A stretch of 64,000 nucleotides of DNA from the NCBI GenBank assembly GCA_043826565.1, contig JBDRPX010000003.1, positions 81,293 to 145,292 of the forward strand, read 5' to 3'. The DNA comes from Candidatus Omnitrophota bacterium. Its GTDB lineage: Bacteria > Omnitrophota > Gorgyraeia > B26-G9. Made by a program: the position numbers and the translations under genes. The notes under the pieces are model-generated. The model was not told the DNA's origin. It saw nothing but the letters and a program-made list of their open reading frames with translations, and did not search any database. Numbering within the stretch: the first letter of the stretch is position 1; each line of letters opens with the position of its first letter. This document shows positions 16,669 to 55,972 of the stretch, one piece after another.

Positions 16669-16669
16669 T

Positions 16670-26652: not shown

Positions 26653-26673
26653 GGACAGGCCTTGTGCCTGTCC
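26653..26673 (+). terminator. Intergenic GC-rich hairpin (8-bp stem, 5-nt loop) directly after the stop
   Basis: ggacaggc-cttgt-gcctgtcc, flanked by a gggaca direct repeat. Confidence 0.35.
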
Positions 26674-26685
26674 GGGACAAAAATT

Positions 26686-29024: not shown

Positions 29025-29036
29025 CGGAAATTAAAA

Positions 29037-30137: not shown

Positions 30138-30219
30138 AATATTAAAAGCTTTTCAGTTCGCAAACTGCTGTGCTAATATAATTGTTTGCAATGTGTTAAT
30201 AAAGAAGTGAGTATTTTAT

Positions 30220-30771
30220 ATGAAAATTTTTAGGGCAAGTATTATTGCATTGTTTTTGGTTTTGCTGGCAGTTTCCGGGACTTTAGCCGAGCCGCAAAGC
30301 TATTCCTTTGCGGCAATCAAGGCTAATGGGGCTTGGGATAAAGCGAAGATAGATGATCGGGAAGCTATTATTACAGATAAAGCCAAAGCAAATGCATATA
30401 TTAAAATTGAAGTTCCCCAAGACGGTATTTATCAATTGTATATAGGTTTGTATCATAACTGGAGGAAGTTTTGCCCTTATTTATATGTTGAGGCTGTAGA
30501 TAGTAATCGTAAAAAGTTTTCCGGATATGTCTACTCAGAGCCGCGTTGGTATATGGAAAAAGGTCAGGGCAGATGGGAATTCCGTTCGCCCAGCGCGACC
30601 CCTTTTTGGCGGCTGACAAAAGGGGAAATGAAGATAAAATTTTGGCTGGTAGCGATGAATTCATGTTGGGAGCATAAAGAAGTGGAAGTTGAAGATCTCG
30701 TGGCTGTGGATGAATTTGTCTTAATACCGTTTAACGAAAATACAAGAATACAATATAATATAATAAGATAG
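30220..30771 (+). CDS. Secreted hypothetical protein (183 aa)
   Basis: Signal peptide 'MKIFRASIIALFLVLLAVSGTLAEP'. No recognisable motifs. Confidence 0.4.
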   Translation: MKIFRASIIALFLVLLAVSGTLAEPQSYSFAAIKANGAWDKAKIDDREAIITDKAKANAYIKIEVPQDGIYQLYIGLYHNWRKFCPYLYVEAVDSNRKKFSGYVYSEPRWYMEKGQGRWEFRSPSATPFWRLTKGEMKIKFWLVAMNSCWEHKEVEVEDLVAVDEFVLIPFNENTRIQYNIIR

Positions 30772-37733: not shown

Positions 37734-38741
37734 ATGCAAAATTTTGCGATTAAGTTTTTATATGAGTTGTTAAAAGTTAAAATTACCGGTAAAGCTAAGC
37801 CTTTACTGGCAACTTTTTCCTTAACTGCAAGGTGTAATTGCAGTTGTGAATATTGCGATTTGCTTAGCAAAGGGACTTCCCAGGAGCTTAGTACCGCAGA
37901 GATTATGGATATTATTGCTGAATTAAGGCAATCCGGAACAATGTATATCCATTTTAGCGGAGGAGAGCCTTTATTGCGTACTGATTTTGAGGAAATTACC
38001 GGATATGCTAAATCTTTGGGAATGATTGTTTCCTGTTCAACTAATGCTGTAATGCTGGCAGAACGTGTTCCTGAACTTAAAAAAAATATTGATAAGATAA
38101 ATATTAATTTTGACGGGACAGAGCAGGTATGTGAAAGAATCAAGGGTAAGGGAGCATACAAAAAAATCATTTTTGCTTTAGAAGCTTTACGTAATTCCGG
38201 AATTAAAACGGTTTTGTCAGTTGTCTTGACTAAGTTTAATACTAATAATACATGTTTAGAACATATTTTAAATATCGCCGAAGAATATAGCACAAATGTT
38301 ATTTTTCAGCCGGCAATCAATTTTTCGGATGGTACGCCTTCAGCGATCGCTCCGGAGCCTAAAGATTATCAGGAATTTTTAAAAGAGGTTCTAAGAAAAA
38401 AAATGTCCGGTCAAAAACAGCGCATATTGAATTCTGTTGTTGGGCTGAAGTATCTGCAATTCTGGCCGTCGGAAGATGTGAAATTAAATTGTCCGGCCGG
38501 AAAAATATACTGCCGGATCCGTTCTGACGGAGCATTAAGTTTGTGTGGATTAAAGTCGGGGAAATTTTTTCTTAAAAAAAATATTTCAAAAGACGAAATG
38601 CCTGATGATTTAAAAAAATTACAGATATTTAAAGAGTTTTGCCCGTTTTGTTGGTGTGCGGTCCGGGTGGAATTGTCACAGATATGGGGATTGAGTTTAG
38701 GATCAATGATAAATACTTATCAATGTCAAAGTAAAAAGTAA
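37734..38741 (+). CDS. Radical SAM/SPASM protein
   Basis: 'LTARCNCSCEYCDL'. 'HFSGGEPLL'. C-terminal 'CPAGKIYC...LSLCGL...FCPFCWCAV'. Confidence 0.8.
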   Translation: MQNFAIKFLYELLKVKITGKAKPLLATFSLTARCNCSCEYCDLLSKGTSQELSTAEIMDIIAELRQSGTMYIHFSGGEPLLRTDFEEITGYAKSLGMIVSCSTNAVMLAERVPELKKNIDKININFDGTEQVCERIKGKGAYKKIIFALEALRNSGIKTVLSVVLTKFNTNNTCLEHILNIAEEYSTNVIFQPAINFSDGTPSAIAPEPKDYQEFLKEVLRKKMSGQKQRILNSVVGLKYLQFWPSEDVKLNCPAGKIYCRIRSDGALSLCGLKSGKFFLKKNISKDEMPDDLKKLQIFKEFCPFCWCAVRVELSQIWGLSLGSMINTYQCQSKK

Positions 38742-38794: not shown

Positions 38795-39643
38795 GTGAAA
38801 ATATTCATGATCAGGCTTAAAAATATACTATGCTGTATTATCTGCTTTATTTTTTGCGGGGCAGTTTATCTGCTTGCCGGGGAAACATCACAATCCTTGG
38901 AAGCATTTCGTCTTTGTGATTGGAAGATCGGCCAATTTGCGGAATATCAGATATTAAGTATGGAAAATGAAGGAGTAGAAAATCGATATCGTATTTATAT
39001 TGTGGGGGAAGAGGAACACGAGAGTAAGAAATTCTTTTGGTTAATGCTTGAAATATTTAATGTTGATAAAAGAGAGGTTGCCTTTAAGGTTTTAACCGAA
39101 CCCTATGATTCAGAATCATTTTTGAAAAATACCGCATCATATATTTCCCAAGGGTTTCTCTATTTATTGCGTAATTCACGAAGGGTTATTATTGTTTTAG
39201 AAAATAATTCAGAGTATGAAATTTCCCCGCTTAAATTTTTTGAACAGCCGGATATCCTGGATAAGACTGTTTATGAAAGATCGCCGTGTGAGATAGGTAA
39301 TGTTGATTATTCAAACATGTTGATCGGCAGTGAAAAAGAAGAAATTAAACTCCCGGCCGGGATATTTGATTGTTATCGTTTTTCGATTGAGACTGATCGG
39401 GAAAAATCCTATGCGGATGAGGGGTTTGATCTGTGGCGGTCTTCAAAAGTGCCGTTTTTAGGTATTGTTAAGATGGAGTTTTCCAAAACAAAATTCAATG
39501 AAAAAAGAAGAAATGAATATAGTTTACAAGTGCAGGAGGGGAATTGGCTGAAACGTTTATCTAAAATATTTTTGAAAAGAAATGTTCCGGGAGGGGATCG
39601 GGAAGATGTGCATACAATCCGATTAATAAATTATCAGAATTAA
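38795..39643 (+). CDS. Secreted/anchored hypothetical protein; paralog of 44865..45734
   Basis: Signal/anchor 'ILCCIICFIFCGAVYLLAG'. 'CDWKIGQFAEYQI...FFWLMLEIF' matches 'CPWKVGQSVEYQI...FFWIRFDIF'. 'DLWRS.KVPFLGIVKMEFSKTK' is conserved in both. Confidence 0.5.
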   Translation: MKIFMIRLKNILCCIICFIFCGAVYLLAGETSQSLEAFRLCDWKIGQFAEYQILSMENEGVENRYRIYIVGEEEHESKKFFWLMLEIFNVDKREVAFKVLTEPYDSESFLKNTASYISQGFLYLLRNSRRVIIVLENNSEYEISPLKFFEQPDILDKTVYERSPCEIGNVDYSNMLIGSEKEEIKLPAGIFDCYRFSIETDREKSYADEGFDLWRSSKVPFLGIVKMEFSKTKFNEKRRNEYSLQVQEGNWLKRLSKIFLKRNVPGGDREDVHTIRLINYQN

Positions 39644-39681
39644 TGGATGGAAAGAACGGCTGATTTTAAAAGGGGCATAAA

Positions 39682-41511
39682 TTGATAAGAGGATGTTTGA
39701 ATAGAATTAAACGTATAAGTAAACAGGAACTAATTGCGCTAATAGTAATTTTCTGCGCTATCGCGGTCTATACATTGCCATTGTTTTTGCGGCTGGATAA
39801 GGCTTTGACTTTAACGAATAAAAACTGTATTACGGCGTGGTATCGTACATATAATCTTAGTTTTTTTACATATACGAGTATTCTTACGGAAAAAAATTTT
39901 CCTTTTTGGTGCCCTTTTCGGGAGGGTGGATTTTACTGGACCATCTATCCTTCAGAATTATCCTGCAATTTTTTCTCACCATTGATGTTGTTTTTTGGCC
40001 TTGTCAAAGGCTTAAATCTCAGCTGGTACCTGCTGTATTTTGCCGGTGCTTTTTCAATGTTCTACTTGACGAGAAAGGTCTTGAAATATAGTTTATTCGG
40101 GGCTATTTATTCGGCGATTGTTTTTTCTATGTGCGGCTATTTTGCTTTTATGCAGGGGCTGGGTTTCTGGACAAAAGAGACGATGCTTCTGCCGCTGTTG
40201 GTGGCTTTTTCCTTGAAGTCAAAATTTGATAATAGATATATTTTTTTTACGGCAATAATGCTGGCATTGCTCGTGCCTAGTCTTTTGTTTTTTCCAATAA
40301 TTATTCTGTTTCTTTTGATGATCGCATGTTCAGATTCGGTAATAATAGAAAATAAAAAAGTTTTGTTTAAAAAAAGAAGTCTTGTTTGTCTCGGAGCGAG
40401 TTTGGTTTTAGCCGTATGTTTTTCGGCTTTTAAAATTTTACCGGTAGCGGAATTACTTAAAAAAGATATGTTGATTAGCGGGCCGGTTTACGAATTAGCT
40501 ATTGAACAGGCAAATACCTGGAAATTGTTTTTCCGGCATATGTTTATTCCGGAAAATTCAAATGTGGGAACCATGTATATTGGATATTTACCTGTTTTTT
40601 TAATGATGCTGGCTTTTATTCTTGAATTTAAGCGCAACCGAAAATGGATATTAATTTTAATTTTATTCATTATTTTATCATTTGGACCTAATTCATGGAT
40701 AGACCTGAATTATTTTTTATGGAAGGTGCCTTTTTTTAAATCAATACGTGAGGTCTCAAAATACTATACTCTGCTCATTGTTTTTTTAATCAGCTTAACC
40801 AGCGGAAGTTTTTTTTGTTATTTTAAAAATAAAAAAACAGGAAAATACGCAAATAGTTTATTTGGGTTTTTAATTTTATTGACTTTTTTAGACCTGTTTT
40901 GGGCAAATTTCGGTTATTTTAATATTTATAACGACAGTTTAAAGCTGGAAAAGCATAAAGATTTTATAGCTCATGTAAAGGCGATCAATATTCATAAAGG
41001 GGACGAGGGGCCGATTGAGCCATTAAGGCTTGCGCTATTCCAAAATGGATATGGATTAGTTAATGCGCAGTACGACCGGTTTACCAACTACTTTAAAGAA
41101 TCTTTTACTAAGCCTAAGTATTTAATAATGCCTGAATATGTGTTCATGATGCCCAGTACAAAAATGTTTATCCTGAGGAATCCGGATTATGCCGGAGAAG
41201 CTTATTTTCTTAATAAAAGGGGGCAGGTAAGGAATTTACATATAAATTCAAGGGGAATTAATGCTGAGGTAGAAGTTTTAGAACCGGATATTCTGTTAAT
41301 AAATCAGAAATTTGCCGACGGATGGAAAACTAATTTCGGTAAAATTAAAAGTTACCAGGGGATCATTGCTGTAGAGTTTAAAGAAAGTGGCAATTATAGT
41401 CTGCGGCTGCAGTTTGTGCCAATTTCTTTTTTTGCGGGATTTGCGATCAGCATAATTTCTTTAGCCATAGCATTATTTGTCTTTTGGCGCTGGCGTTTTA
41501 ACTTGTTTTAA
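39682..41511 (+). CDS. Large polytopic membrane protein (609 aa), possibly GT-C/YfhO-like; paralog of 45727..47583
   Basis: TTG start. More than 12 hydrophobic segments. 'FPFWCPFREGG', 'YSAIVFSMCGYF' and 'YFTKPKYLIMPEYVFMMPS' are conserved with the paralog. Confidence 0.4.
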   Translation: MIRGCLNRIKRISKQELIALIVIFCAIAVYTLPLFLRLDKALTLTNKNCITAWYRTYNLSFFTYTSILTEKNFPFWCPFREGGFYWTIYPSELSCNFFSPLMLFFGLVKGLNLSWYLLYFAGAFSMFYLTRKVLKYSLFGAIYSAIVFSMCGYFAFMQGLGFWTKETMLLPLLVAFSLKSKFDNRYIFFTAIMLALLVPSLLFFPIIILFLLMIACSDSVIIENKKVLFKKRSLVCLGASLVLAVCFSAFKILPVAELLKKDMLISGPVYELAIEQANTWKLFFRHMFIPENSNVGTMYIGYLPVFLMMLAFILEFKRNRKWILILILFIILSFGPNSWIDLNYFLWKVPFFKSIREVSKYYTLLIVFLISLTSGSFFCYFKNKKTGKYANSLFGFLILLTFLDLFWANFGYFNIYNDSLKLEKHKDFIAHVKAINIHKGDEGPIEPLRLALFQNGYGLVNAQYDRFTNYFKESFTKPKYLIMPEYVFMMPSTKMFILRNPDYAGEAYFLNKRGQVRNLHINSRGINAEVEVLEPDILLINQKFADGWKTNFGKIKSYQGIIAVEFKESGNYSLRLQFVPISFFAGFAISIISLAIALFVFWRWRFNLF

Positions 41512-41541
41512 AGCGGCAGATACGATAGGCTAATCATTTTG

Positions 41542-42558
41542 TTATGTAAATAATGATTTTAAATAGAATGAGAAGCCTTCAATGCTGCATTTTTCGCAAA
41601 GAGGGGATAATTGCCGGTTTTCTTTAAGTTTTTGTCTGAATTCTATGTATTGGGGGCTGTTCCAAATCACAGAAATTTTTTGATCATTGATATTTCCCAA
41701 AGCATATTCACCTTCCATATCAAAGCAGCATGGCGCAACTGTCCCATCCCAGAAAATCACACTGGATATCCAAGGATGCATACAGGATGGTTTAGTGAAA
41801 TTATTTTTATAATAGGAGCGGATATATTTTTTATTTTTCGGCAAGTAGTTTTCCCGGGGCGGCATATGCAGGGAGTTTATACGGACTTTTTTTAGTAATA
41901 TTTTATCTACTTTTAAATCCTTAGCGATTTTTTTAAAATGACTGATCTCATTTTCTGTTTCGCGCATCAGTAAAAGCTGTAATACAATATGCGGCTTGCG
42001 CAATCTATCGCGGGAAGTGGTCAATATCCTGATATTTTCCAGAACTTTTTTAAAGTCACCGGATCTTTTATAATTCGCATAAGAGGCGGGTGTTGCGCAA
42101 TCAAGAGAAATGAGTATCTCATCAGCACCGCTATCTATGATGTTTTTGATTGTTTCCGGACTTGGGAAATTGCCATTGGTGCTCAATTTTACGAATATGT
42201 TTTTGCTTTTAGCATAGGAGATCATTTTGAAGATTTCCGGGTTTAAGAAAGGCTCCCCCAGATTATATAAAGCTAAATAGAATATTGTTTTTTCTAATTC
42301 ATCGAGAATAAGCTTAAATGTATTAAAATCCATATTACCGGGTGTTCTTTTTAATTCGCCTTGTCCAATAGCACATAATGAACATTTTAGATTGCAATGA
42401 TTAGTGGGTTCGATTTGTACTAATATCGGGAGGCTTTTAAGTTCTGGGCTTTTTTGCAGATAAGAAAAAAGTGCTTTTAAAATAAACTTAAATCTTTGTT
42501 TATGAAATACTGCTTCGAGAAGTGTTGTATACTTAGATAATTTTATCAGCAATTTCAT
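41542..42558 (-). CDS. Radical SAM/SPASM protein (minus strand)
   Basis: 'IEPTNHCNLKCSLCAIG'. 'LYNLGEPFL'. C-terminal 'CMHPWISS...GTVAPCCFD...CEKCS'. Confidence 0.8.
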   Translation of the reverse strand: MKLLIKLSKYTTLLEAVFHKQRFKFILKALFSYLQKSPELKSLPILVQIEPTNHCNLKCSLCAIGQGELKRTPGNMDFNTFKLILDELEKTIFYLALYNLGEPFLNPEIFKMISYAKSKNIFVKLSTNGNFPSPETIKNIIDSGADEILISLDCATPASYANYKRSGDFKKVLENIRILTTSRDRLRKPHIVLQLLLMRETENEISHFKKIAKDLKVDKILLKKVRINSLHMPPRENYLPKNKKYIRSYYKNNFTKPSCMHPWISSVIFWDGTVAPCCFDMEGEYALGNINDQKISVIWNSPQYIEFRQKLKENRQLSPLCEKCSIEGFSFYLKSLFT

Positions 42559-42756
42559 TTTGTCGGCCTATTTTAAAAATCACGCGAAAGGTTTTATAAT
42601 TAGAATTATAGCAGAATAAGCGAACTAAACAAGAAAAATGCGAGGTTTATATTTAACTGCAGACATGTAATATTATTTTATCGCAGGTCGGCGTATATGT
42701 TATAATAAAAGCATAAAAATTGTCCGGTTAACCAGATTTTGAAAGTTAAAGGTTGA
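42559..42756. promoter_or_regulatory. Divergent intergenic region (198 bp), probably bidirectional promoters for 41542(-) and 42757(+)
   Basis: AT-rich. 'gtatatgttataataaaag' contains a TATAAT-like -10 for the + strand. Head-to-head gene arrangement. Confidence 0.35.
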
Positions 42757-43464
42757 ATGAATAGTAAAAAGATTGCGATTATGCAGCCGGGGTATTTGCC
42801 CTGGCTGGGGTTTTTTGAATTAATGCTTCGTTGTGATCTGTTTGTTTTTCTTGACGATGTCCAGTATACGGTAAGAGACTGGCGTAATCGGAATAAGATC
42901 AGAACAAAACAGGGGTGGCAGTGGCTTAGTGTTCCGGTGCTGCATAAGGGCCGGAGGCAGCAATTAATAAAAGATGTGCAGATAAATGACGCGTTGCCCT
43001 GGAAAAATAAGCATTTAAAGGCGATGGAGATTAATTATCGTAAATCCCGTTTTTTTCCTGATTATTTTCCCGGGATTGAAAAGATATTTGCGATGGATTT
43101 GCCCGGATTATGTGATCTAAACATAGAGTTAATTGTTTTTCTAAAGGAATGCTTAAAAATAGATACTCCGGGAATACGTTCATCATCGTTGACTCTTAAG
43201 GCCGGAAAAAATGAGCGGATTATTGATATTTGCCAGCAGCTTAATGCCGGTGAATTATATGACAGCCAGGCGGCATCTGAGTTTCTTGAAGGTGCATTAT
43301 TTGCTAAAAAAGGTATCAAAATAGAATTTCAGAAGTATAACCATCCTGAATATAAGCAGTTATACCCCCCGTTTATACCCTACTTATCAGTTATAGACCT
43401 ACTGTTTAATTATGGCCCGCAGAGCCGGAAAATTATTAGTTTCGGCGGCAAAAATCAAAATTAA
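42757..43464 (+). CDS. WbqC-like family protein (glycan-cluster associated, function unknown)
   Basis: 'KIAIMQPGYLPWLGFFELM...FLDDVQY...RNRNKIRT' matches the characteristic WbqC N-terminus (from memory). Confidence 0.6.
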   Translation: MNSKKIAIMQPGYLPWLGFFELMLRCDLFVFLDDVQYTVRDWRNRNKIRTKQGWQWLSVPVLHKGRRQQLIKDVQINDALPWKNKHLKAMEINYRKSRFFPDYFPGIEKIFAMDLPGLCDLNIELIVFLKECLKIDTPGIRSSSLTLKAGKNERIIDICQQLNAGELYDSQAASEFLEGALFAKKGIKIEFQKYNHPEYKQLYPPFIPYLSVIDLLFNYGPQSRKIISFGGKNQN

Positions 43465-43471
43465 ACCATTT

Positions 43472-44584
43472 TTATTGGGGCTTATCTGTAAAGTAAAATT
43501 CCTTAGAGTTATTAAAGAAATTAAATAGTATAGTAGCCTTCATTTTTTCACCCTGCTCATTAAGATGGCAATGATCGGAAAACCACGAATCATCAAAAAG
43601 TGACGGCTCCGGTATTATAAAAGGAATTTCATGTAGTTCGGAGAGCTCCTTCATAATTTGATAGTTTTTCTTAAGCGCTAAAGCACCCGGTTTCGCTAGA
43701 CCTTTCAGAACTTCGTTATTTTGCAATAAAAAATCTTCCTTAGCACTTAAAAAACCGAAGAGAACAACTTTTGTGCCATTGCTTTTAGCCAGTTTGATTA
43801 TCGTATCTAAATTGCGCCTAAATCCTTCGCAATTGTTTTGGTTTACCCGCTCTAGAGCTTTTTTACTGTCAATTAACTTTAAATCATAGGGTTGTGATTG
43901 GTATACCGTTGGGGTTGAGTTAAGCCAGTTGGCGTAGATTAATTTAATAAAGCTGCTTACGGAAAGTAATGTCCGTTCAAATCGACGCGGGATAATACCG
44001 CTTCCGTGAGCACGAAAGTGGGTATATTCAGGGGAGTAATTTTCAAAGAATAACGGAATGATATCATTTCCGCCGGTATGAATAATAAGAATATCCAGGT
44101 TGAGATATTGATGCCGAAAGACGTATGATGCGAGTAATTCAGCTGTTGTTGCATAGTTTAGTCCGGCATTTATAGTTTCAATATTCGGGTTTATTTTTTC
44201 TCTTAACATATCTCCGAGTTGGGAAATCCAAGTGTCATTGGGATTTTTTATGTAAGGGTACATGTCTGTTGTGGAGCCGCCAAGTGCAAGTATCCGTATT
44301 GACGAATCTGATTTTTTTTGATCAAATTCTTTGCCTCGATATCCTTGAGAATTGTTTTGCTGGAAGCCATCGGCATAATAATTTCTAGTATTTTGATAAA
44401 GAAGATATGGATGCGGTTCAATTGAGTATGGGCTGCTGGGGGCGTTTCCCAAATAAATATCGACCAGGTTTTTCCCATTGTTTAAAGAGGGAGGTAAGTG
44501 CGCATAGATATATCCAGATACCAGTTCAAGCAGTAAGAGGGAAACAAGGATTAATCCAACGTTTTTAATTTTTTTATTTATCAA
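43472..44584 (-). CDS. SGNH-hydrolase-like protein with N-terminal TM anchor (minus strand)
   Basis: 'RILALGGSTTDMYP' (block I variant). 'IIHTGGNDI'. 'DHCHLNEQGEKMKA' (DxxH). Same architecture as 3076..4062. Confidence 0.55.
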   Translation of the reverse strand: MINKKIKNVGLILVSLLLLELVSGYIYAHLPPSLNNGKNLVDIYLGNAPSSPYSIEPHPYLLYQNTRNYYADGFQQNNSQGYRGKEFDQKKSDSSIRILALGGSTTDMYPYIKNPNDTWISQLGDMLREKINPNIETINAGLNYATTAELLASYVFRHQYLNLDILIIHTGGNDIIPLFFENYSPEYTHFRAHGSGIIPRRFERTLLSVSSFIKLIYANWLNSTPTVYQSQPYDLKLIDSKKALERVNQNNCEGFRRNLDTIIKLAKSNGTKVVLFGFLSAKEDFLLQNNEVLKGLAKPGALALKKNYQIMKELSELHEIPFIIPEPSLFDDSWFSDHCHLNEQGEKMKATILFNFFNNSKEFYFTDKPQ

Positions 44585-44741
44585 TTCAGAGCCATCTTTT
44601 TCTAATGCGAATGAGTTTTTAAAGATAATGTTTAATTTGTTACTAAAGTAGCATTAATTGAGGCAATTATCAAGAGAAAATTTTGTTTAGTGTGGGAAAC
44701 TGTCTATTGATCTTTCCGGAGAGTCTTAAAAATCATAAGTC

Positions 44742-44770
44742 TTGACTTTTATTGATCTTGCATATAAAAT
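44742..44770 (+). promoter_or_regulatory. Sigma70-like promoter candidate for the downstream + strand block
   Basis: TTGACT (44742-44747), 17-nt spacer, TAAAAT (44765-44770). Lies in the 280-bp AT-rich divergent region upstream of 44865. Confidence 0.4.
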
Positions 44771-44864
44771 AAACATTAATATTGCCGCAGAGTTTTAGGT
44801 GAGTTTTAGTAAATCATTACTTATCTTAACATAAGATGGGTATTATCCTTAGGCTAGCCTTTTA

Positions 44865-45734
44865 ATGAAAAAAAAGTCTATAAATAAATCACTATTCCTC
44901 TTATCGTTTGCCGCATTTTTTCTTCTTTTTACTTCCCCCAACTGTTTTTCTGAGGAAAGTGAAGGGTCTTTTTCTCTTTGTCCCTGGAAAGTGGGGCAAT
45001 CTGTTGAATATCAGATTATGGGATATGATGATTCCGGCAGAGAGAATAGTTATAGATTGGCTATTGTAGGAAAAGAAATAGTTGATAATAAAGATTTTTT
45101 TTGGATAAGGTTTGATATATTTAGTTTTCAGAGTAGAAAAATAAGTTTTATGGCCTTAGTGCCGCCATATGACCGCGCGGATTTTTCCGAGCATTATAAC
45201 TTGTATATCCGGGAGGGGCTGTTTTTTTTGCTTAAACGGGCGGAGAAGATCATGGTCATACTGGATGATGATTCCTGCTACGAATTATCTGCTTCTGAAA
45301 TTTCTCAAGAAATACCTTTTTTAAACGATTCTTTTTATAATACGCTGCCGGGGATAAATAACGAAGTTGACTATTCAAAGTTAAAAATTTTTGATAAAAA
45401 GGAAAAAGTTGCTACTCCGGAAGGTGAGTTCTATTGCTATCGATTTAGCAGTCAAACTAATAAATATGAATCTGCTTCAAAAGAAGGGATGGATTTATGG
45501 CGGTCTCCGGATGTCCCCTTTTTAGGGATAGTAAAAATGGAGTTTTCCAAAACTAAAAATATTGCGAAAATAGATCAGGTTTTTCAATGTGAATCATCCG
45601 AAGGCAGCTGGTTAAGAAAGCTGTATCTCAGATTTTTTTTGAAAAAAGTTCCCCGCGAGCGGATTTTTGAAGATACGTTCTTTATGCAATTAATTGATTA
45701 TCAGAGAGAAGAGAGATTAATCGCTGATGAGTGA
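44865..45734 (+). CDS. Secreted hypothetical protein; paralog of 38795..39643
   Basis: Signal peptide 'LFLLSFAAFFLLFTSPNCFS'. See paralog alignment at 38795..39643. Confidence 0.5.
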   Translation: MKKKSINKSLFLLSFAAFFLLFTSPNCFSEESEGSFSLCPWKVGQSVEYQIMGYDDSGRENSYRLAIVGKEIVDNKDFFWIRFDIFSFQSRKISFMALVPPYDRADFSEHYNLYIREGLFFLLKRAEKIMVILDDDSCYELSASEISQEIPFLNDSFYNTLPGINNEVDYSKLKIFDKKEKVATPEGEFYCYRFSSQTNKYESASKEGMDLWRSPDVPFLGIVKMEFSKTKNIAKIDQVFQCESSEGSWLRKLYLRFFLKKVPRERIFEDTFFMQLIDYQREERLIADE

Positions 45735-47583
45735 AGGCCAAAGAAAGCATTTTTTTCATAAGTTAAATAAAGATCATTGGGCAATTCTAGCTATTATTAT
45801 TGCTATTGGGATATATACTTTTCCTCTTCTTTTGAAGCTTAATAAATCATTTGTGTTTTATCAGAAAAATTGCATAAATTCTTGGTACGACTTATATTGG
45901 AACGGATTTTTTTACAGGAATTCAATATTGACGAATCATGAATTTCCTCTTTGGAGTGCTTTTCGGGAAGGAGGATGTTTTGGGGCCGGAATGCCGGCGG
46001 AGATTTCGCTTAATCCTTTTTCTCTATTTATCTTATTGGGAGGTGTAGTTAAGGGACTCAATTTTAGCTGGTATATTTTATATTTTGGAGGGGCATTGTC
46101 AATGTACTATCTGACAAGATGCGTTCTTAAATATAATGTTTTTGGGGCTGCTTATTCAGCTATAGTTTTTTCCATGAATGGTTTTTTTCCCGAAAAGCAG
46201 CTGGATGCTTTTATATATGCGAGAGAAACTATATTATTGCCGCTGATTATGGTTTTTTTTCTAAAAGCGATAAATGATAATCGGTATATAGTTTTTACGG
46301 GTTTAATGCTGGCATTGTTTTTTATCCAAACAGCCTTATATTTCTGCGTAATTGTATTATTTCTATTTGTGTTTGCCATATTGAATTCTTTTCGAATAAG
46401 TGATGGTAAAATCAGGCTAACTAAAAGGCATCTTATCGTGTTTTTTGCCAGTCTTTTTTTTGCTCTACTGATTTCCGCCGGTAAATTATTCCCGCTTTTG
46501 GAAGTAATGAATTTTAATGTCGGTTTAAATGATTTTAAAGAAGCAGCGATAGTTTCTCAGGCCAATACAATCCCGATATTAATGCAACGTCTTTTTGCCC
46601 CCGGAAACTCCGGGCCTGCGGAGATGTATATAGGGTATTGGCCTGTTGGATTATGTCTAATTACGGGAATAGTTGCGTATAAGCGGCTATGGAGCTGGTT
46701 TTTTGTGCTTTTCGTGTTTATTCTGCTATCTTTTGGGAATAATGCAGTTTTTAATCTGCACAAATTAGTTAGTCATGTGCCGGGATTTAAAGCGATTATC
46801 GAAGTCGCGAAATACTACGGACTTATAATTGTTTTTACTATCAGTGTCATTAGCGGAGCTTTTTTCGGGCTGATAAAAAAGCCTCTTTTGAGAACGCTTA
46901 AGGTGCTTATTATAATTATTCCGTTATTATTTACTTATGGAGATCTATTGTGGGCTAATAGCGGTTATTTTAATTATTATACCGGGCAGCTTCCGGAAAT
47001 AATTGATCAGGGAGATTTCTTTCAAGTTAGATCAGTAGGTGTGCCGCAAGATGATGAGGGAACACAATCGGCGATATTGCCGGCATTATATTCTAAAGGT
47101 ATTGGATTAATCAACGCTGGGTACTTTTCTAAAGAACGTGTCGAGAAGGATAAAATATTGAAATTTTTTGATGAGAAGAAAATAATCCCGAAATATTTCA
47201 TATTGCCAAAGTATGTATTTCTAATGCCGAGTACAGATATGTTTGCTCTCCCGAATAAAAATTATATGGGTGAGGCCTGGTTTATGTCCGGATATAACAC
47301 GGTTACTGATTTTTCCATAAAGACTAATTCTATAAGAATAAAAGTGAATATTAAAAGTGCCGATCGATTAATAATTAATCAAAATTATTCAAGATGGTGG
47401 AAGTCAGCAGGGTATAAAGTTACTGACTATAATGGGAAACTTAGTGTATTTTTGGATAAGCCGGGGGAGTCTGATGTGGATTTGCGTTTTATTCCCTGGA
47501 ATTTTTATATCGGCTTGGTTGTTTCCCTGGGCACTGTATTATGTTCTGTAGGGTGGCTGAAAAAATATCGGGTAAATAGATGA
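45727..47583 (+). CDS. Large polytopic membrane protein (618 aa), paralog of 39682..41511
   Basis: 'IGIYTFPLLLKL...NCINSWYDLY...FPLWSAFREGG...YSAIVFSMNGFF'. Confidence 0.4.
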   Translation: MSEGQRKHFFHKLNKDHWAILAIIIAIGIYTFPLLLKLNKSFVFYQKNCINSWYDLYWNGFFYRNSILTNHEFPLWSAFREGGCFGAGMPAEISLNPFSLFILLGGVVKGLNFSWYILYFGGALSMYYLTRCVLKYNVFGAAYSAIVFSMNGFFPEKQLDAFIYARETILLPLIMVFFLKAINDNRYIVFTGLMLALFFIQTALYFCVIVLFLFVFAILNSFRISDGKIRLTKRHLIVFFASLFFALLISAGKLFPLLEVMNFNVGLNDFKEAAIVSQANTIPILMQRLFAPGNSGPAEMYIGYWPVGLCLITGIVAYKRLWSWFFVLFVFILLSFGNNAVFNLHKLVSHVPGFKAIIEVAKYYGLIIVFTISVISGAFFGLIKKPLLRTLKVLIIIIPLLFTYGDLLWANSGYFNYYTGQLPEIIDQGDFFQVRSVGVPQDDEGTQSAILPALYSKGIGLINAGYFSKERVEKDKILKFFDEKKIIPKYFILPKYVFLMPSTDMFALPNKNYMGEAWFMSGYNTVTDFSIKTNSIRIKVNIKSADRLIINQNYSRWWKSAGYKVTDYNGKLSVFLDKPGESDVDLRFIPWNFYIGLVVSLGTVLCSVGWLKKYRVNR

Positions 47584-49109
47584 ATATAAAATTCATACAT
47601 TCAGAGTTACAGGCATTGGGCATAGAATATGTTGCCGCAGTATTGAAGAAACATGGCCATTCTGTAGAGCTTATCGTTGACCCATATTTTCCTTTTTTAT
47701 CTAAAGCGGGAAAGTTTCTTAAAAGAATCAGCGGTTGGCAGCAAAAACTCATTCGCAAAGTAATTGACGGGAATCCGGATCTAATAGCTTTTTCTGTGAC
47801 AAGTTATAACCTGGAATGGGCTTATCATATTGCCGCGGAATTGAAGAAGAATTCCTCTGTGCCGATTGTCTTTGGCGGGGTACAGGCTACACTTGTTCCC
47901 GAGGTAATTTTAACTCAGTCGGCGGCGGATTTTGTTATCTTGGGCGAGGGTGAATATGCGATGCTGGAACTCCTCCAGAGTTTTAAGACAGGGCAAGAGT
48001 ATTCAAATATCGCTAATCTATGCTATCTTAATGAGGGCAAAATCGAGACCAATTCATTGCGGCCTTTGATTGAGAATCTTGATACTTTACCTTTTCCCGA
48101 TAAAGACCTTGTTCCTTTATGGCTAAACAGAGGTTTGTATAGAATCGTAACGGGACGGGGATGCCCGGGGAGATGTACTTATTGCTGTGCTCCGATACAA
48201 GCAGATATCTATAAAGACAAAGGTGATTTTATCCGACGGCGTTCCCCGGAAAATGTAATTGCCGAGCTTAAACAGGCAAAAGTAAAATATCAGATTAAAC
48301 GCGTTCTTTTTGAGGATGATCTATTTACTTATGATAAGAATTGGCTGAGGATTTTTTCTCGACAATATAAAAAAGAAATCAATATCCCTTGTTTTATCCA
48401 TGCTACGCCTAAAAGTATTGATGATGATATTGTGAGCTTTTTAAAAAATATGTCCTGTTATTCTGTGGAGCTGGGAGTGCAAAGCCTTAAGCGGGATATA
48501 AGAGAAAAATTTCTAAAACGATACTATACCAATGACCAGATTGAAAAGACAATAATTTTGCTTAAGGGTAAAGGGATTAATTGTATTTGCGATAATATCG
48601 TGGGATTGCCGGAGGAACAAGAAGCTGATTTAGCAAGTATGGTTGAGTATTATAATAAATTGCGTCCGGGAAAAATTGAATTATTGCGGTTAGAATATTA
48701 TCCCAAAGCAGAAATTATTGAATTCTCAAGCTTAAGTAAAGATGAACTTGATAGAATAAATTTAGGAGAATTGGTGGTTTCTTCAAGGTGGCATACCCCC
48801 AAGATAAATAAAATGATGCTTCTTATCGGCTTAAGTTATATATTACCCAAGAAGATTATTTCGTATATGCTTCATAATCAAGTGTATAATCTTTTTTACC
48901 CATTTAATGATTATAATCACATTAATGAAACAATTTTTTACCTGGGTGCTTTATTAAAACGGAATAGAAAAAAAGTTTTTATTTCTTTTCGGGCAGATGT
49001 GTTTTATAAACTAAAATACATTTTTACGAAGTCTTTTAATTATAAACATTCTAAGGTTGGCGTTCGAGAGGAAAAACAAATGCTCGAATCAAACTATGTT
49101 AAGGTGTGA
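47580..49109 (+). CDS. B12-binding-domain radical SAM protein
   Basis: 'ALGIEYVAAVLKKHGHSVELIVDP'. 'IVTGRGCPGRCTYCCAP'. Confidence 0.8.
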   Translation: MNIKFIHSELQALGIEYVAAVLKKHGHSVELIVDPYFPFLSKAGKFLKRISGWQQKLIRKVIDGNPDLIAFSVTSYNLEWAYHIAAELKKNSSVPIVFGGVQATLVPEVILTQSAADFVILGEGEYAMLELLQSFKTGQEYSNIANLCYLNEGKIETNSLRPLIENLDTLPFPDKDLVPLWLNRGLYRIVTGRGCPGRCTYCCAPIQADIYKDKGDFIRRRSPENVIAELKQAKVKYQIKRVLFEDDLFTYDKNWLRIFSRQYKKEINIPCFIHATPKSIDDDIVSFLKNMSCYSVELGVQSLKRDIREKFLKRYYTNDQIEKTIILLKGKGINCICDNIVGLPEEQEADLASMVEYYNKLRPGKIELLRLEYYPKAEIIEFSSLSKDELDRINLGELVVSSRWHTPKINKMMLLIGLSYILPKKIISYMLHNQVYNLFYPFNDYNHINETIFYLGALLKRNRKKVFISFRADVFYKLKYIFTKSFNYKHSKVGVREEKQMLESNYVKV

Positions 49110-49113
49110 AAAT

Positions 49114-50178
49114 ATGCGGATAAAGTCATTCAATAATATAATTTCAAATATTGGAAAAGTTGCTTCCGCAAAATTCTTCGGGAGGATTAGGCCGTTATCA
49201 GTTGTATTTTTTCTGACTTACCGCTGCAATTTAAATTGTAAATATTGCGGACAAAGCCATGACTTAGGCAATAGCTATTCAGAGAGCAGTGAGTTGTCTG
49301 TAAAGGAAATTGAGCGTGTTTTTATTGCCTTAAAAACGGCAAAAGTAGACAAAATAAATCTTTCCGGAGGGGAGCCCTTAATAAGAAGTGATTTGGCCCA
49401 GATAATCAGTGCGGCACGTTCTCAAGGGCTTAGTATCAGTCTATCGACAAATGGTATTCTGCTGCCGGAAAGAGTTGATTTGTTAAAGGATTTAAATTTA
49501 ATCGTGTTGAGTTTAGATGGAAAAGCACAAGCCCACGATTTTATGCGTGGAGATAGTTCTCATAAGACAGCGTTGAAGGCGATTGAGGTCTCTTCCGCCA
49601 AGAACATACCGATTCTTTTATCGTGTGTGATCAGTAACAAAACAACTGCGCAGGATATTGATTTCGTGCTTGATATCTGTAATCACTATAATGCCAGGTG
49701 TGTTTTTCAGCCGGTATTGGATCGGGGGTTTTTTCGCGAAAGCTGGCAGATATGTCCGGAAATAAGCAAAAATAAGCCAAAAGTTGAGAGGGCCAGAGAA
49801 ATAATCGATTATATTAGAAAGCACAAATACTTTGGTAAAGTAATTGGGAATATGTATTGGTATAATTCAATTTGCGAATTTTATAAAAGACAACTCGATC
49901 CTAAACAGAAAAAATATCCCTGTATGGGCGGCCGGCTTTTTCTGGCAATTTCTCCCGATGGGAGTGTTATTTCTTGCGGCCCTCGAGCTCAGAAAATTTT
50001 TGATTGCAAGGCCCATCAGGAAGGTTTCAATAAAAGCTTAAAAGGAAAGATTCCGCAGATCAATTGTGAAGGCTGTTTTTGCTATTCTTATATATTAATG
50101 AATTCATTAGCAAAGTTTAATTTTGAAACGATAAAAGCATATCTTGCGCATAAACACATTGATTTTTTAAAAAATTGA
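49114..50178 (+). CDS. Radical SAM/SPASM protein
   Basis: Start placed at ATG 49114 (AAGGTG 8 nt upstream); the ORF track begins earlier, overlapping by 53 nt. 'LTYRCNLNCKYCGQS'. 'NLSGGEPLI'. C-terminal 'CMGGRLF...VISCGP...CEGCFC'. Confidence 0.75.
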   Translation: MRIKSFNNIISNIGKVASAKFFGRIRPLSVVFFLTYRCNLNCKYCGQSHDLGNSYSESSELSVKEIERVFIALKTAKVDKINLSGGEPLIRSDLAQIISAARSQGLSISLSTNGILLPERVDLLKDLNLIVLSLDGKAQAHDFMRGDSSHKTALKAIEVSSAKNIPILLSCVISNKTTAQDIDFVLDICNHYNARCVFQPVLDRGFFRESWQICPEISKNKPKVERAREIIDYIRKHKYFGKVIGNMYWYNSICEFYKRQLDPKQKKYPCMGGRLFLAISPDGSVISCGPRAQKIFDCKAHQEGFNKSLKGKIPQINCEGCFCYSYILMNSLAKFNFETIKAYLAHKHIDFLKN

Positions 50179-50196: not shown

Positions 50197-51534
50197 ATGT
50201 TATTGGATAATGATAGAATCATAAGAAAAACTAAAAGTATTTGTCCGGAATGTCACAAGCAGCTGGAAGCGTATATTATCGAAAGAACCAATGAAATACT
50301 ATTAATTAAAAGTTGTCCGGTCCACGGTGATTATAAAGCTGTTTACTCGCGTTCCCCGGGTTCTTATAGGTCATTTCAAGAAGCATACATTCCGCTGATG
50401 TGCCGGAAGCAGGCTGATTCAGAAATAGAGGTAGTTTTGACCTACAAGTGTAATATGACTTGCCCGATATGTTATTGGGGAAAACATAAAGATATGTTCA
50501 TAGATATCGAACCAACATTTGATGAATTGGCACAATTGGTAAAAACTGATAGTAAAAGGATATGGCGCTTTACATTTACCGGAGGAGAACCGACATTAAG
50601 AAGTGATTTACCGCAGATTATTAGAATGTTCAAAAAACACGGCCGGGGAATAAGTATTAATACTAATGGGATCAAATTAGCTGATCCTGTTTATGCGCAG
50701 CAGTTGAAAGATACGGGGATCGACAGAGTAAATATCCAATTAGACGGGTTTGATCAAGAAATGGAAATTGAGTTCCGAGGAGAGAATTATTTACCTTTAA
50801 AATTTAAAGCCTTGGACAATTTAAAGAAGCTTCAAATTCCTACGGGAATTAATGCGGTTATTTCCCGGGACATGGGCGAAACACAGATTAATAATTTGCT
50901 GAATTTCGCAATTGAAAATAAATCTGTAAAATCACTCACCTGGTTAACCTTAGTTTGTCCGGGGAAAGAGAAGAAAGATTCATTGCCTAAGTATATTATG
51001 GCCGATGAAGTGCTTGATCTTATTGAAAAGCAAACCGCGGGAAAACTGTCCAAGCAAAATTTTTTAATTTTAAGAAAATTTTATTTGATCACGTCTTTAT
51101 TTTTTAATCGAGGAAGCTGCCGTTATAGTCATATGTATATTTTGTTTAGAAAAAATAATAGTTATGAAGGAATAGACCACTATCTTAATCTGGCATCAAT
51201 AAATTGTCATTTGGATACATGCTATGAGTTACATAAAAAAAATAAAATTTTGGGCTGGTTATTTTTTGTTTTTTGTTTGCCGTTTATTTGTTTGTATAAT
51301 TCGAACTCATTTGGTTTGTTAAAAGAATTTTTTGCGAGCGGGATCTCCTTTTTTATGGGGAATAATAGCTATCTAAAACCGGCTAATTTATTATACTTAA
51401 GAGTAATCACAATTTGCGATGTCCATAACTTTGATGAGGTAGGGGGGCAATGTGCGTTTGGGATTGCGTTAAAGGATAAGGACAAATTGTATAAAGATAA
51501 AATAAGGAATGTAAATATTAAAATTTCCAAATAA
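50197..51534 (+). CDS. Zinc-ribbon/rubredoxin-like N-terminus + radical SAM protein, paralog 1 of 5
   Basis: 'RKTKSICPECHK...IKSCPVHG' (CxxC...CPxH). 'LTYKCNMTCPICYWG' CxxxCxxC. 'FTGGEPTLRSDL'. Three conserved C-terminal Cys ('GSCRY','TICD','GQC'). Confidence 0.6.
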   Translation: MLLDNDRIIRKTKSICPECHKQLEAYIIERTNEILLIKSCPVHGDYKAVYSRSPGSYRSFQEAYIPLMCRKQADSEIEVVLTYKCNMTCPICYWGKHKDMFIDIEPTFDELAQLVKTDSKRIWRFTFTGGEPTLRSDLPQIIRMFKKHGRGISINTNGIKLADPVYAQQLKDTGIDRVNIQLDGFDQEMEIEFRGENYLPLKFKALDNLKKLQIPTGINAVISRDMGETQINNLLNFAIENKSVKSLTWLTLVCPGKEKKDSLPKYIMADEVLDLIEKQTAGKLSKQNFLILRKFYLITSLFFNRGSCRYSHMYILFRKNNSYEGIDHYLNLASINCHLDTCYELHKKNKILGWLFFVFCLPFICLYNSNSFGLLKEFFASGISFFMGNNSYLKPANLLYLRVITICDVHNFDEVGGQCAFGIALKDKDKLYKDKIRNVNIKISK

Positions 51535-51583
51535 TCGAGGAATATCTTTGTGATTGAAAATATGACGAAAACGAGGAGTTTTC

Positions 51584-55949: not shown

Positions 55950-55972
55950 TTGAATAAGGGAAGTTAGCTTTT

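Follow-up and report, generated by a model that had tools for sequence, protein, structure and literature searches.

A putative two-component GT-C glycosylation module present as two anciently split copies in a predicted glycan locus of an uncultured Omnitrophota bacterium

Introduction

CsbB, GtcA and YfhO constitute three-component systems of Firmicutes (B. subtilis, S. aureus, L. monocytogenes) that decorate LTA or WTA with GlcNAc (PMC8035078, PMC5836110). In Gram-negative bacteria, ArnC/ArnT and GtrA/GtrB/Gtr(type) modify lipid A or O-antigen at the periplasmic face: a cytoplasmic GT2 enzyme loads polyprenyl phosphate, and a GT-C enzyme transfers the residue to a lipid-anchored envelope acceptor. 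Large GT-C enzymes such as AftD and S. aureus YfhO possess built-in acceptor-binding domains, and a review raises the possibility that small GT-C enzymes depend on a second protein for acceptor binding (PMC8035078). The superfamily of LolA, LolB, RseB and MucB, together with DUF3108, comprises open beta half-barrels with acyl chains or LPS as ligands.

Here, we analyze a stretch of 64,000 nt (referred to in its entirety as the window) of contig JBDRPX010000003.1, assembly GCA_043826565.1, from the uncultured Candidatus Omnitrophota bacterium. It encodes two small exported proteins, S1 and S2, and two membrane proteins, Y1 and Y2, with one S and one Y forming a module. We arrive at the verdict that S-Y is probably a new form of multi-component GT-C glycosylation system.

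Results and discussion

Two homologous modules

Module 1 consists of S1 (38795..39643, plus strand, 282 aa) and Y1 (39682..41511, plus strand, 609 aa), module 2 of S2 (44865..45734, plus strand, 289 aa) and Y2 (45727..47583, plus strand, 618 aa), the stop codon of S2 overlapping the start of Y2 by 8 nt. In the NCBI gene calls, S1 (278 aa) and Y1 (604 aa) lack 4-5 residues of the mechanical ORFs. Both modules are collinear on the same strand and separated by only 3.3 kb. A first-pass annotation had taken them for paralogs, and pairwise alignment bears this out as true homology, well past compositional similarity: S1 and S2 are 40% identical over 253 aa (E 3e-66), Y1 and Y2 41% identical over 589 aa (E 1e-142). 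At the DNA level, some stretches still show 71-81% identity, all at an offset that stays at ~6045-6064 nt.

The S proteins have the open beta half-barrel fold of the LolA/LolB/RseB-like superfamily and thus that of the lipid carriers and sensors LolA, LolB, RseB and LppX. In S1 the half-barrel follows an N-terminal signal or anchor helix, and the S proteins are Sec-exported, beta-rich and LolA/RseB-like. Pfam detects them barely or not at all. S1 gave no match at E <= 0.01, S2 matched DUF3108 weakly and below threshold (E 1.5e-4, 22.1 bits against a cut-off of 26), and similarly weak matches to DUF3108 and DUF3108_like were obtained for 10 and 5 of 35 family members, respectively; no curated-family threshold (DUF3108, LolA etc.) was reached and no PDB sequence was matched. 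Compared with LolA, LolB, RseB and MucB, S has extra helices at its C-terminus (234-260) and a signature motif of its own, DLWRSxxVPFLGIVKMEFSKT, and it is genetically tied to a GT-C enzyme rather than to Lol or sigma-E components. Judging from the fold, the cavity of the barrel is a putative binding site for a lipid or an acyl chain.

The Y proteins are GT-C fold proteins with borderline membership in the Pfam family YfhO. Their polytopic membrane core has GT-C architecture; Y1 spans the membrane with ~13 TM helices and, toward its C-terminus, carries a beta domain in the periplasm (~415-578) before the terminal TM helix (581-608). Y1 exceeds the gathering threshold of YfhO (PF09586; 33.3 bits, threshold 28.5), and 6 of the 13 clade members match this family. 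Y1 aligns only to positions 66-317 (TM core) of the 835 profile positions, and the full-length YfhO architecture is not present. With a clade profile, 987 cluster representatives were retrieved at E < 1e-30; the majority of the 150 best were ~600 aa long. By these measures, the Y clade is a distinct short subfamily. The PDB holds neither a structure of the YfhO family nor a close sequence relative of Y. Half-barrels like that of S also bind ligands other than lipids, and Y2 had no match of its own in the Pfam scan, which makes the family and fold assignments weaker than they appear.

A loop-1 Asp ('DW' motif, position 52 of Y1) is present in ~80% of 128 family relatives. It is missing in most of the Y clade, being Ala in Y1 and Ser in Y2, so that catalysis would depend on a putative substitute, E81 of the FREGG motif. 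This clade-specific Glu resides in the same loop 1, and the two residues almost exclude each other: of 130 sequences, 104 contain the Asp alone, 18 the Glu alone, 6 both and 2 neither. The pattern suggests that the acid has been relocated and that catalysis has not been lost. The other family-invariant residues, i.e., P74, G82-G83, K251, Y503-G-E506, N541-Q542 and W548, are kept in both copies, and the invariant motifs of Y2 (FREGG, Y-x-G-E, NQNY..W) are intact.

Linkage of S and Y

In all 17 distinct loci examined, S is located immediately upstream of Y, and the two proteins co-diverge, their distance matrices being correlated (r = 0.69, Mantel 0/5000). Moreover, the two occur as single-ORF Y-S fusions, one encoded in L006 (7374-8555, minus strand; related loci are given by number), where it adjoins the canonical pair, and the other the 900-aa protein P0093, which keeps an Asp-type loop. 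In both fusions, a TM segment in the linker returns the S domain to the periplasmic side. Adjacency, co-divergence and fusion support a functional partnership of S and Y. The first-pass annotation had guessed that the large protein is GT-C/YfhO-like and the small secreted one its periplasmic partner, and these observations, along with the folds, speak in favor of that guess.

The surroundings are, by gene content, a glycan locus. They encode GT1, GT2 and GT4 enzymes, DegT aminotransferases, a carbamoyltransferase, an AsnS-like amidotransferase and seven PMT_2 GT-C proteins. The nearest ArnC-like GT2 (13219-14166) lies ~25 kb upstream and aligns with ArnC along its entire length (236 bits); homologs of it immediately precede S-Y in L015 and WbqC-S-Y in L010. 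Behind module 2 come B12-radical SAM enzymes with matches to lipid-biosynthesis families and five radical SAM enzymes of the Tes/TrsS-like kind, and none of these matches reaches its family cut-off.

Comparison with described systems

S-Y has in common with CsbB/GtcA/YfhO a YfhO-like GT-C protein and the presumed use of a C55-P-sugar from a GT2 enzyme of the CsbB/ArnC/GtrB type (PMC8035078, PMC5836110). The window encodes a GT2 of this type, and one immediately precedes S-Y in L015. The differences are considerable: Y has only ~610 aa, Y1 matches no more than the TM core of the 835-position Pfam profile and Y2 none of it, an obligate gene for a LolA-like exported partner has not been described for YfhO systems, and the loop-1 Asp of the family is replaced by the downstream Glu. 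In addition, no Pfam match to a GtrA/GtcA-like flippase was found among the window proteins scanned, which, with the ArnC-like GT2 ~25 kb away, makes the setting an imperfect one for a three-component system. The host belongs to a PVC-related uncultured phylum, in which teichoic acids are generally not expected.

The resemblance to the ArnC/ArnT and Gtr systems lies in the division of labor between GT2 and GT-C enzymes and extends to the ArnC-like protein and the DegT (ArnB-like) aminotransferases of the locus. However, Y is only ~8-11% identical to ArnT and has a different periplasmic domain, and the ArnT and GtrC enzymes work without a LolA-like partner. When compared with the large GT-C enzymes of the AftD type, the S-Y pair and the Y-S fusion fit the proposal that acceptor binding is outsourced (PMC8035078). 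In S-Y, the place of a carbohydrate-binding module is taken by a LolA-like accessory domain on a protein of its own; fusion to the enzyme is confined to one side branch, that of P0093 and the L006 ORF.

Origin of the two modules

As judged from sequence divergence and trees, the two copies are anciently split out-paralogs. Between the modules, pS reaches 0.73-0.75 and is saturated, dN is ~0.59 and nucleotide identity 52%. In neighbour-joining trees of 15 sequences, Y1 and Y2 were sisters in 0/100 bootstraps; Y2 grouped with the L004 protein in 100/100, and Y1 fell within the group of L001, L003, L006 and L007 in 99/100, so that each copy sided with proteins of other Omnitrophota. S1 and S2 were sisters in 2/100, and the S tree places S1 poorly (9/100 for the clade that Y1 supports). 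While Y1 and Y2 share 41% identity, their closest relatives in other genomes reach 52-58% and, with the L004 protein for Y2, 51%; the closest relative of S2 is likewise the S protein of L004 (46-49%). The copies resemble each other (40%/37% identity) to the same degree as modules from different genomes do at the median. Neither the saturated synonymous divergence nor the fact that the copies are not each other's closest relatives fits a recent tandem duplication.

Each module is embedded in a conserved block of its own. The module-1 block has the order AsnS - rSAM - S - Y and recurs in L001, L002, L003, L006 and L007. Its radical SAM enzyme (MoaA/PqqE-like, 335 aa; 37734..38741, plus strand; Pfam Radical_SAM E 1.7e-25), encoded directly upstream of S1-Y1, has orthologs of 38-39% identity directly upstream of S-Y in L001, L006 and L007 and is a 31% paralog of 49057-50178. 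The latter belongs to the module-2 block, WbqC - S - Y - B12-rSAM - rSAM, which recurs in L004/L005 and L016; the order WbqC-S-Y is also present in L010, L012 and L022. The downstream partners in this block are a B12-binding radical SAM protein (47580-49109, plus strand) and a second radical SAM protein (49057-50178, plus strand), both assigned by Pfam, for which L004/L005 and L016 show the same order and identities of 52-54% and 36-39%. In L016, which contains one module only, the left flank corresponds to window positions 24137-30771 and the right flank to position 42757 onward.

We consider it probable on the whole that the locus contains two old out-paralogs of a lineage-restricted S-Y module, each in its own sub-operon, whose products act as complexes in GT-C glycosylation. 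The two-module state may have arisen by ancient duplication and loss in most lineages, or by lateral acquisition of one block. The second route, as an explanation in its own right, departs from the favored one in origin only, not in function: starting from one S-Y module per locus in the ancestor, this lineage would have gained the entire block WbqC-S2-Y2-B12-rSAM-rSAM from a different Omnitrophota lineage, through recombination into its homologous surface-glycan locus, and the copies would be xenologs. We grant this a real chance, somewhat short of an even one. A single canonical module is present in 10/10 GTDB species representatives and 5/5 metagenome loci, a count that could be too low since the genomes compared are mostly incomplete MAGs, and no second canonical S-Y pair occurs within the fetched DNA of 17 other loci; on the count of single modules, one gain is more parsimonious than many losses. 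Furthermore, S-Y pairs are ~35-45% identical between genomes and their flanking enzymes 55-68%, which fits cassette-like exchange in a surface-glycan locus, and glycosyltransferase genes for LPS and capsule are reportedly abundant in hypervariable loci of Omnitrophota (10.64898/2026.06.07.730766). On the other hand, block 2 is free of compositional anomaly, and L006 with its fused Y-S gene beside the canonical pair shows that multi-module states occur elsewhere too. Downstream of block 2, the array of Tes/TrsS-like radical SAM genes is syntenic with L016 and L022, where it lies behind their only module, so that block 2 could equally be the ancestral one.

Proposed function

S and Y are translated jointly, with no more than ~40 nt of gap or overlap between the genes, and probably act as a complex at the periplasmic face of the inner membrane. 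Y is predicted to take its sugar from a polyprenyl-phosphate-linked donor, the product of an ArnC/CsbB-like GT2 (13219-14166, for example), and to transfer it to an envelope glycan or glycolipid, while S may offer a hydrophobic pocket for the lipid moiety of that donor or of an acceptor anchored by a lipid. Most likely, the two copies represent two different decoration steps that differ in donor or acceptor specificity, both within what would be a single, very large pathway in which radical SAM enzymes abound. A bolder formulation is that S-Y is an undescribed two-subunit GT-C class. Its LolA-like subunit would bind lipid and present the lipid-linked donor or acceptor to a short catalytic subunit of the YfhO type, whose acid would have migrated within loop 1 ('DW' Asp to FREGG Glu), and each paralog would attach a different residue to an envelope glycolipid or glycan that is heavily tailored by radical SAM enzymes and peculiar to Omnitrophota. 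This we offer as a speculation that is rather unlikely to be right in every part.

It is improbable, in our view, that Y is no glycosyltransferase but a scaffold or lipid handler, with S carrying an unusual lipid, the product of the neighboring radical SAM enzymes, through the periplasm. This idea draws on the loop-1 Asp missing in Y1, Y2 and most of the clade, on the lipid carrier/sensor fold of S and on the radical SAM genes behind module 2. It has to contend with E81, which appears exactly where the Asp has been lost, with the retention of all remaining family-invariant residues in Y1 and Y2, with the surrounding glycan locus and with the Asp-type loop retained in the fusion P0093.

The stretch between the modules

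The first-pass annotation had noted that the only strand switches fall between the modules, and throughout the 64 kb this proved correct: the sole real minus-strand genes are located there, all remaining minus-strand ORFs of at least 150 aa being nested within plus-strand genes. The identities given to the three genes in between were also borne out by Pfam. The radical SAM/SPASM gene (41542..42558, minus strand, convergent with Y1; SPASM 9e-19, Radical_SAM 3e-16) has relatives that come immediately 3' of Y on the plus strand, one in L022 (34% identity over 314 aa) and one in L010 (33%). The WbqC-like gene (42757..43464, plus strand; WbqC E 3.4e-78) has homologs of 55-61% identity in L004, L010, L015, L016 and L022 and of 37% in L012. 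With the exception of the L015 copy, these reside directly upstream of S on the same strand, making WbqC the usual upstream neighbor of module-2 type S-Y; a 44-aa WbqC remnant precedes the module-1 type block in L001. WbqC is a conserved neighbor and not foreign cargo.

Two divergent intergenic regions separate these genes on the ORF map. The first (42559..42756, between rSAM/SPASM and WbqC) contains promoter-like matches at 42572-42600 (plus) and 42731-42702 (minus), which are consensus matches and nothing more. The second (280 bp, 44585..44864) does contain the previously noted TTGACT-17-TAAAAT element at 44742-44770 (10/12 matches). Such matches are barely enriched, with 43 found against 33.6 +/- 5.7 in shuffles, and the element is therefore a candidate promoter of the S2-Y2 operon, not evidence of one.

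The earlier proposal of a lineage-specific tandem S-Y duplication with a foreign cassette (rSAM/SPASM, WbqC, GDSL) inserted into it, or of a duplication around that cassette, is largely refuted and has very little probability left: collinearity, the 3.3-kb distance, the confined strand switches and the lack of a second canonical pair within the fetched DNA of the 17 other loci fit it, yet the copies have closer relatives elsewhere and are saturated at synonymous sites, and WbqC and a relative of rSAM/SPASM adjoin S-Y in other loci. Nor does the stretch look like an island. GC, GC3 and GC3 skew of the minus-strand genes match the surroundings, and searches around the in-between genes revealed no flanking repeats, tRNA genes or mobility ORFs. 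Coding-strand GC3 skew is -0.21 for rSAM/SPASM, matching the plus-strand bias, and the gene for the 370-aa SGNH/GDSL hydrolase (43472..44584, minus strand; Lipase_GDSL_2 E 2.9e-9), with a GC of 0.372 and a skew of -0.25, is likewise equilibrated to the local strand bias. It is the only one of the genes in between for which tblastn found no counterpart in related loci (no match at E <= 1e-4 in 25 loci). The stretch is the junction of two conserved blocks, which also holds one inverted conserved neighbor, rSAM/SPASM, and one lineage-specific gene, that for the GDSL hydrolase.

Gene content of the locus

The window carries about 47 genes in one co-directional array, and in an ORF map of all 64 kb the credible genes lie on the plus strand with the sole exceptions of those at 41542-42558 and 43472-44584. 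About 25 of the encoded proteins are radical SAM enzymes of B12-binding, SPASM and Zn-ribbon Tes/TrsS-like types, seven are PMT_2 GT-C proteins, and there are also several GT1/GT2/GT4 enzymes, two DegT aminotransferases, a carbamoyltransferase, an AsnS-like amidotransferase and a DUF362 protein. A GT2 enzyme (13219-14166) aligns along its full length with ArnC (undecaprenyl-phosphate 4-deoxy-4-formamido-L-arabinose transferase) at 236 bits, which is below the equivalog cut-off, and also matches PgfS; this enzyme probably supplies the nine GT-C proteins of the window with polyprenyl-P-sugar donors. Judged by this combination of radical SAM, GT-C, GT1/GT2/GT4, ArnC-like, DegT and similar genes, the window reads as a very large locus for the tailoring of an envelope glycan or glycolipid. 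Large parts of it are syntenic in other Omnitrophota (loci L016, L017, L021 and L022). tRNA genes were not found in the 64 kb. Strand asymmetry is very strong and uniform: in nearly all 1-kb bins the plus-strand GC skew lies between about +0.15 and +0.33, and the few bins in which it drops to about 0.05-0.11 include 43001-44000, where the minus-strand GDSL gene is located.

Y is a short YfhO-like protein with an apparently shifted acidic residue

Two modules of this locus each consist of a gene for a small exported LolA-like protein (S) followed by a gene for a large membrane protein (Y). The first comprises S1 (38795-39643, plus strand) and Y1 (39682-41511), the second S2 (44865-45734, plus strand) and Y2 (45727-47583); proteins identical to S1 and S2 are on record under locus tags ABII88_00475 and ABII88_00500, respectively. 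Y1 scores above the Pfam YfhO threshold over the TM core only (profile positions 66-317 of 835), and Y2 has no Pfam YfhO match. The structural model of Y1 (pLDDT 87.4, pTM 0.90) has about 13 TM helices and a beta domain on the periplasmic side, and ends in a TM helix. In a profile search, 987 cluster representatives at E < 1e-30, mostly 600 aa in length, define a large subfamily of short YfhO-type enzymes; an Omnitrophota clade inside it has the dedicated LolA-like partner. Searches of PDB sequences with the Y and S profiles gave no matches. To our knowledge, YfhO-type GT-C enzymes have been characterised in Firmicutes only, and we know of no solved structure.

In about 80% of 128 relatives (520-700 aa), an Asp or Glu is present at the position corresponding to residue 52 of Y1, within a 'DW' motif where the first juxtamembrane helix of loop 1 begins. 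The Asp presumably sits where ArnT and PglB keep their catalytic Asp. Relatives with the position-52 acid generally lack one at positions 80-81 (xGGGY). In Y1, Y2 and most members of their clade, the corresponding stretches read KNCxxxWY, without an acid, and F[RY]EGG, with Glu81. When Y1 and Y2 are aligned with the 128 relatives, 104 of the 130 sequences have the Asp only, 18 the Glu only, six both and two neither. The other family-invariant residues, P74, G82-G83, P171, K251, Y503-x-G-E506, N541-Q542 and W548, are kept in both Y1 and Y2. These counts and the intact invariant residues suggest that the catalytic acid was relocated within loop 1 from Asp to Glu and that activity was kept, a testable hypothesis about the active site.

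S and Y are linked and occur as fusions

Exact-protein look-ups together with scans of GTDB genomes and of metagenomes yielded seventeen distinct related loci, which were compared with the window by tblastn. In every locus S lies directly upstream of Y with only small gaps or overlaps (8 nt for S2/Y2, 4 nt for the pairs in L001 and L003), and the distance matrices of the two families are correlated (r = 0.69, Mantel 0/5000). In L006, a single ORF (7374-8555, minus strand), convergent to the canonical S-Y pair of that genome, joins the last 85 Y-profile positions through a linker with a hydrophobic helix to an S domain. Protein P0093, 45% identical to this ORF, is a full-length Y-S fusion of 900 aa (Y at 14-602, S at 680-873) with an Asp-type loop 1. 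The extra TM segment in the fusion linker is predicted to restore the S domain to the periplasmic side, which fits S acting beside the periplasmic domain of Y. Invariant adjacency, correlated distances and Y-S fusion argue that S and Y function together. The suggestion in the first-pass annotation that the large protein may be GT-C/YfhO-like with a secreted partner is upheld and sharpened, on the one hand by the TM-core Pfam match and the model of Y1, on the other by the adjacency, co-divergence and fusion of S and Y.

The model of S1 (pLDDT 89.3) has an N-terminal helix, and the alignment, by inspection, suggests that this region is a Sec signal peptide with AxA-like sites for cleavage. Matches of S to DUF3108 are below threshold. 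The S family comprises 35 clusters among 5.8 billion proteins, and all clusters with an organism name are from Omnitrophota; as far as sampled, the S-Y system appears to be restricted to this group. Next to P0011 in L020 and P0012 in L018, two distant Y relatives of the Asp type, no S-like proteins were found. Since P0093 carries an S domain together with an Asp-type loop 1, the S domain is not strictly confined to the Glu-type clade.

Proposed function of the S-Y system

In the mechanism that we propose, an ArnC/CsbB-like GT2 would load a sugar onto polyprenyl phosphate and, after flipping, Y would move the sugar onto an envelope glycan or glycolipid at the periplasmic face. S, in a complex with Y, would hold the lipid portion of the donor or acceptor, and the two modules would carry out distinct steps. 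This scheme builds on what is shown here, namely the folds of both proteins, their linkage and fusion, and the gene context. Similar multi-component transmembrane glycosylation systems are reviewed in PMC8035078, where it is speculated that small GT-C enzymes may depend on a second protein for substrate binding. S-Y is a concrete test case for this idea of a separate substrate-binding subunit, and would represent a GT-C multi-component glycosylation system that is new in its LolA-like partner and shifted loop-1 acid. That S-Y instead serves as a non-catalytic lipid shuttle is possible but less likely, given the compensating Glu in loop 1, the family-invariant residues that are kept and the glycan-type gene context.

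The two modules are anciently diverged

The paralogy of the two modules, proposed from the sequence at first pass, is real: BLASTP gives 40% identity for S1 and S2 (E 3e-66) and 41% over 589 aa for Y1 and Y2 (E 1e-142). Codon-aligned, the modules share 52% nucleotide identity with a dN of about 0.59 and a pS of 0.73-0.75. As synonymous sites are saturated, the dN/dS ratio is meaningless and the conclusion on age alone is kept. Y1 is closer to proteins of other Omnitrophota (52-58% identity) than to Y2 (41%), and Y2 is 51% identical to P0009 in L004, a different relative from that of Y1. In neighbour-joining trees, Y1 and Y2 were sisters in 0/100 bootstraps and S1 and S2 in 2/100, while Y2 grouped with L004 in 100/100 and Y1 with L001/L003/L006/L007 in 99/100. 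S1 and S2, like Y1 and Y2, are as similar to each other as modules of different genomes are at the median. Saturation, non-sister trees and this level of identity argue for out-paralogs or xenologs and not for a lineage-specific segmental duplication.

Each module also has its own conserved neighbours. Module-1 type S-Y genes end a block of the order B12-rSAM - GT2 - DUF362 - hyp - rSAMs - PMT_2 - AsnS - rSAM - S - Y in L001, L002, L003, L006 and L007. The module-2 type block, WbqC - S - Y - B12-rSAM - rSAM (block 2), is present in L004/L005 and L016, and the order WbqC - S - Y also in L010, L012 and L022. L016, with one module only, corresponds to window 24137-30771 on the left flank and to 42757 onward on the right. 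A WbqC remnant of 44 aa in L001 (7931-8062, equal to 8773-8904 in L009) shares 59% identity with the C-terminus of the WbqC protein at 42757-43464 and sits between AsnS and a radical SAM gene upstream of the S-Y pair; therefore, WbqC probably once belonged to the module-1 type block too. A literature search returned no functional characterisation of WbqC.

The genes between the modules form a junction

Pfam identifies the three genes between the modules as rSAM+SPASM (41542-42558, minus strand), WbqC (42757-43464, plus strand, E 3e-78) and GDSL_2 (43472-44584, minus strand), which confirms the initial assignments as radical SAM/SPASM, WbqC and SGNH hydrolase genes. In both L010 and L022, a relative of the rSAM/SPASM gene (33-34% identity) lies directly after Y and in the same orientation; tblastn found no counterpart of the GDSL gene in any related locus. 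Both minus-strand genes match the adjacent genes in GC and GC3. On the coding strand, the third-position GC skew of the two is -0.21 and -0.25, that of all 45 plus-strand genes +0.32 +/- 0.08. Having thus reached the plus-strand bias, they have long been in their present orientation, and a recent inversion is rejected. Searches for direct and inverted repeats bounding them gave, besides patches of coding homology, only short AT-rich pairs at chance level, and neither mobility ORFs nor a tRNA gene nor any other island signature was found between the modules. The TTGACT-17-TAAAAT motif at 44742-44770, initially read as a promoter of the island's own, is present, but carries little weight as proof of a separate transcription unit because the window holds 43 such sites vs 33.6 +/- 5.7 in shuffled sequences.

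On the best reading, two conserved sub-operons meet in this stretch, with one inverted conserved neighbour and one lineage-specific hydrolase, in a locus that spans at least 64 kb and is rich in radical SAM and GT-C genes. As to how the second module came to lie here, lateral acquisition of block 2 and an ancient S-Y duplication followed by loss are both possible: all other loci are without a second canonical module within the DNA fetched, which favours a single gain, but the composition of the block is native and L006 also has a second, fused system beside its canonical pair. The tempting account of the first-pass annotation, duplication in situ with an inserted cassette, is essentially refuted by the age and trees of the copies, by conserved neighbours elsewhere and by native composition without repeats, tRNA or mobility genes.

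In L018 (5001-8871, Woesearchaeota) and L020 (787-3685), GDSL/SGNH hydrolase genes related to window 3076-4062 come immediately after distant YfhO-like genes of the Asp type; next in L018 are genes for a Wzm/Wzt ABC transporter and an rSAM/SPASM protein. The association of YfhO-like, GDSL and rSAM/SPASM genes thus recurs across domains.

Further modules and radical SAM proteins

A second duplicated module of small protein and GT-C protein is present at 11347-13225 and 15913-18355. Its small proteins (11347-12138 and 15913-16668) are about 255 aa long, TM-anchored and 29% identical with a common 'NGDFS...W' motif of CBM-like appearance; each precedes one of two PMT_2 GT-C proteins (12122-13225 and 16670-18355, 31% identical). 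This second pair suggests that accessory-protein plus GT-C pairs are a recurring design of the locus. The small proteins were rejected as further S relatives, as they do not match the S profile and look like TM-anchored CBM-type domains.

Two radical SAM proteins are unusually long: one of 1013 aa (38-3079) has a 660-aa N-terminal region without Pfam match ahead of rSAM+SPASM, and in one of 1443 aa (4092-8423) B12-binding and rSAM domains are fused to a second rSAM/SPASM unit. Five paralogs of about 450 aa (50197-52951, 54588-57325 and 59394-60743; mutual identity 26-53%) each bear an HMPTM-type zinc ribbon at the N-terminus. In NCBIfam they score best against tetraether lipid synthase Tes and selenoprotein TrsS, at 138-176 bits vs cut-offs of 450-490; equivalog names were rejected for these and for the ladderane-type radical SAM genes, all of which score far under the curated cut-offs. 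In L016, four tandem copies of the Tes/TrsS-like gene come after the single S-Y module.
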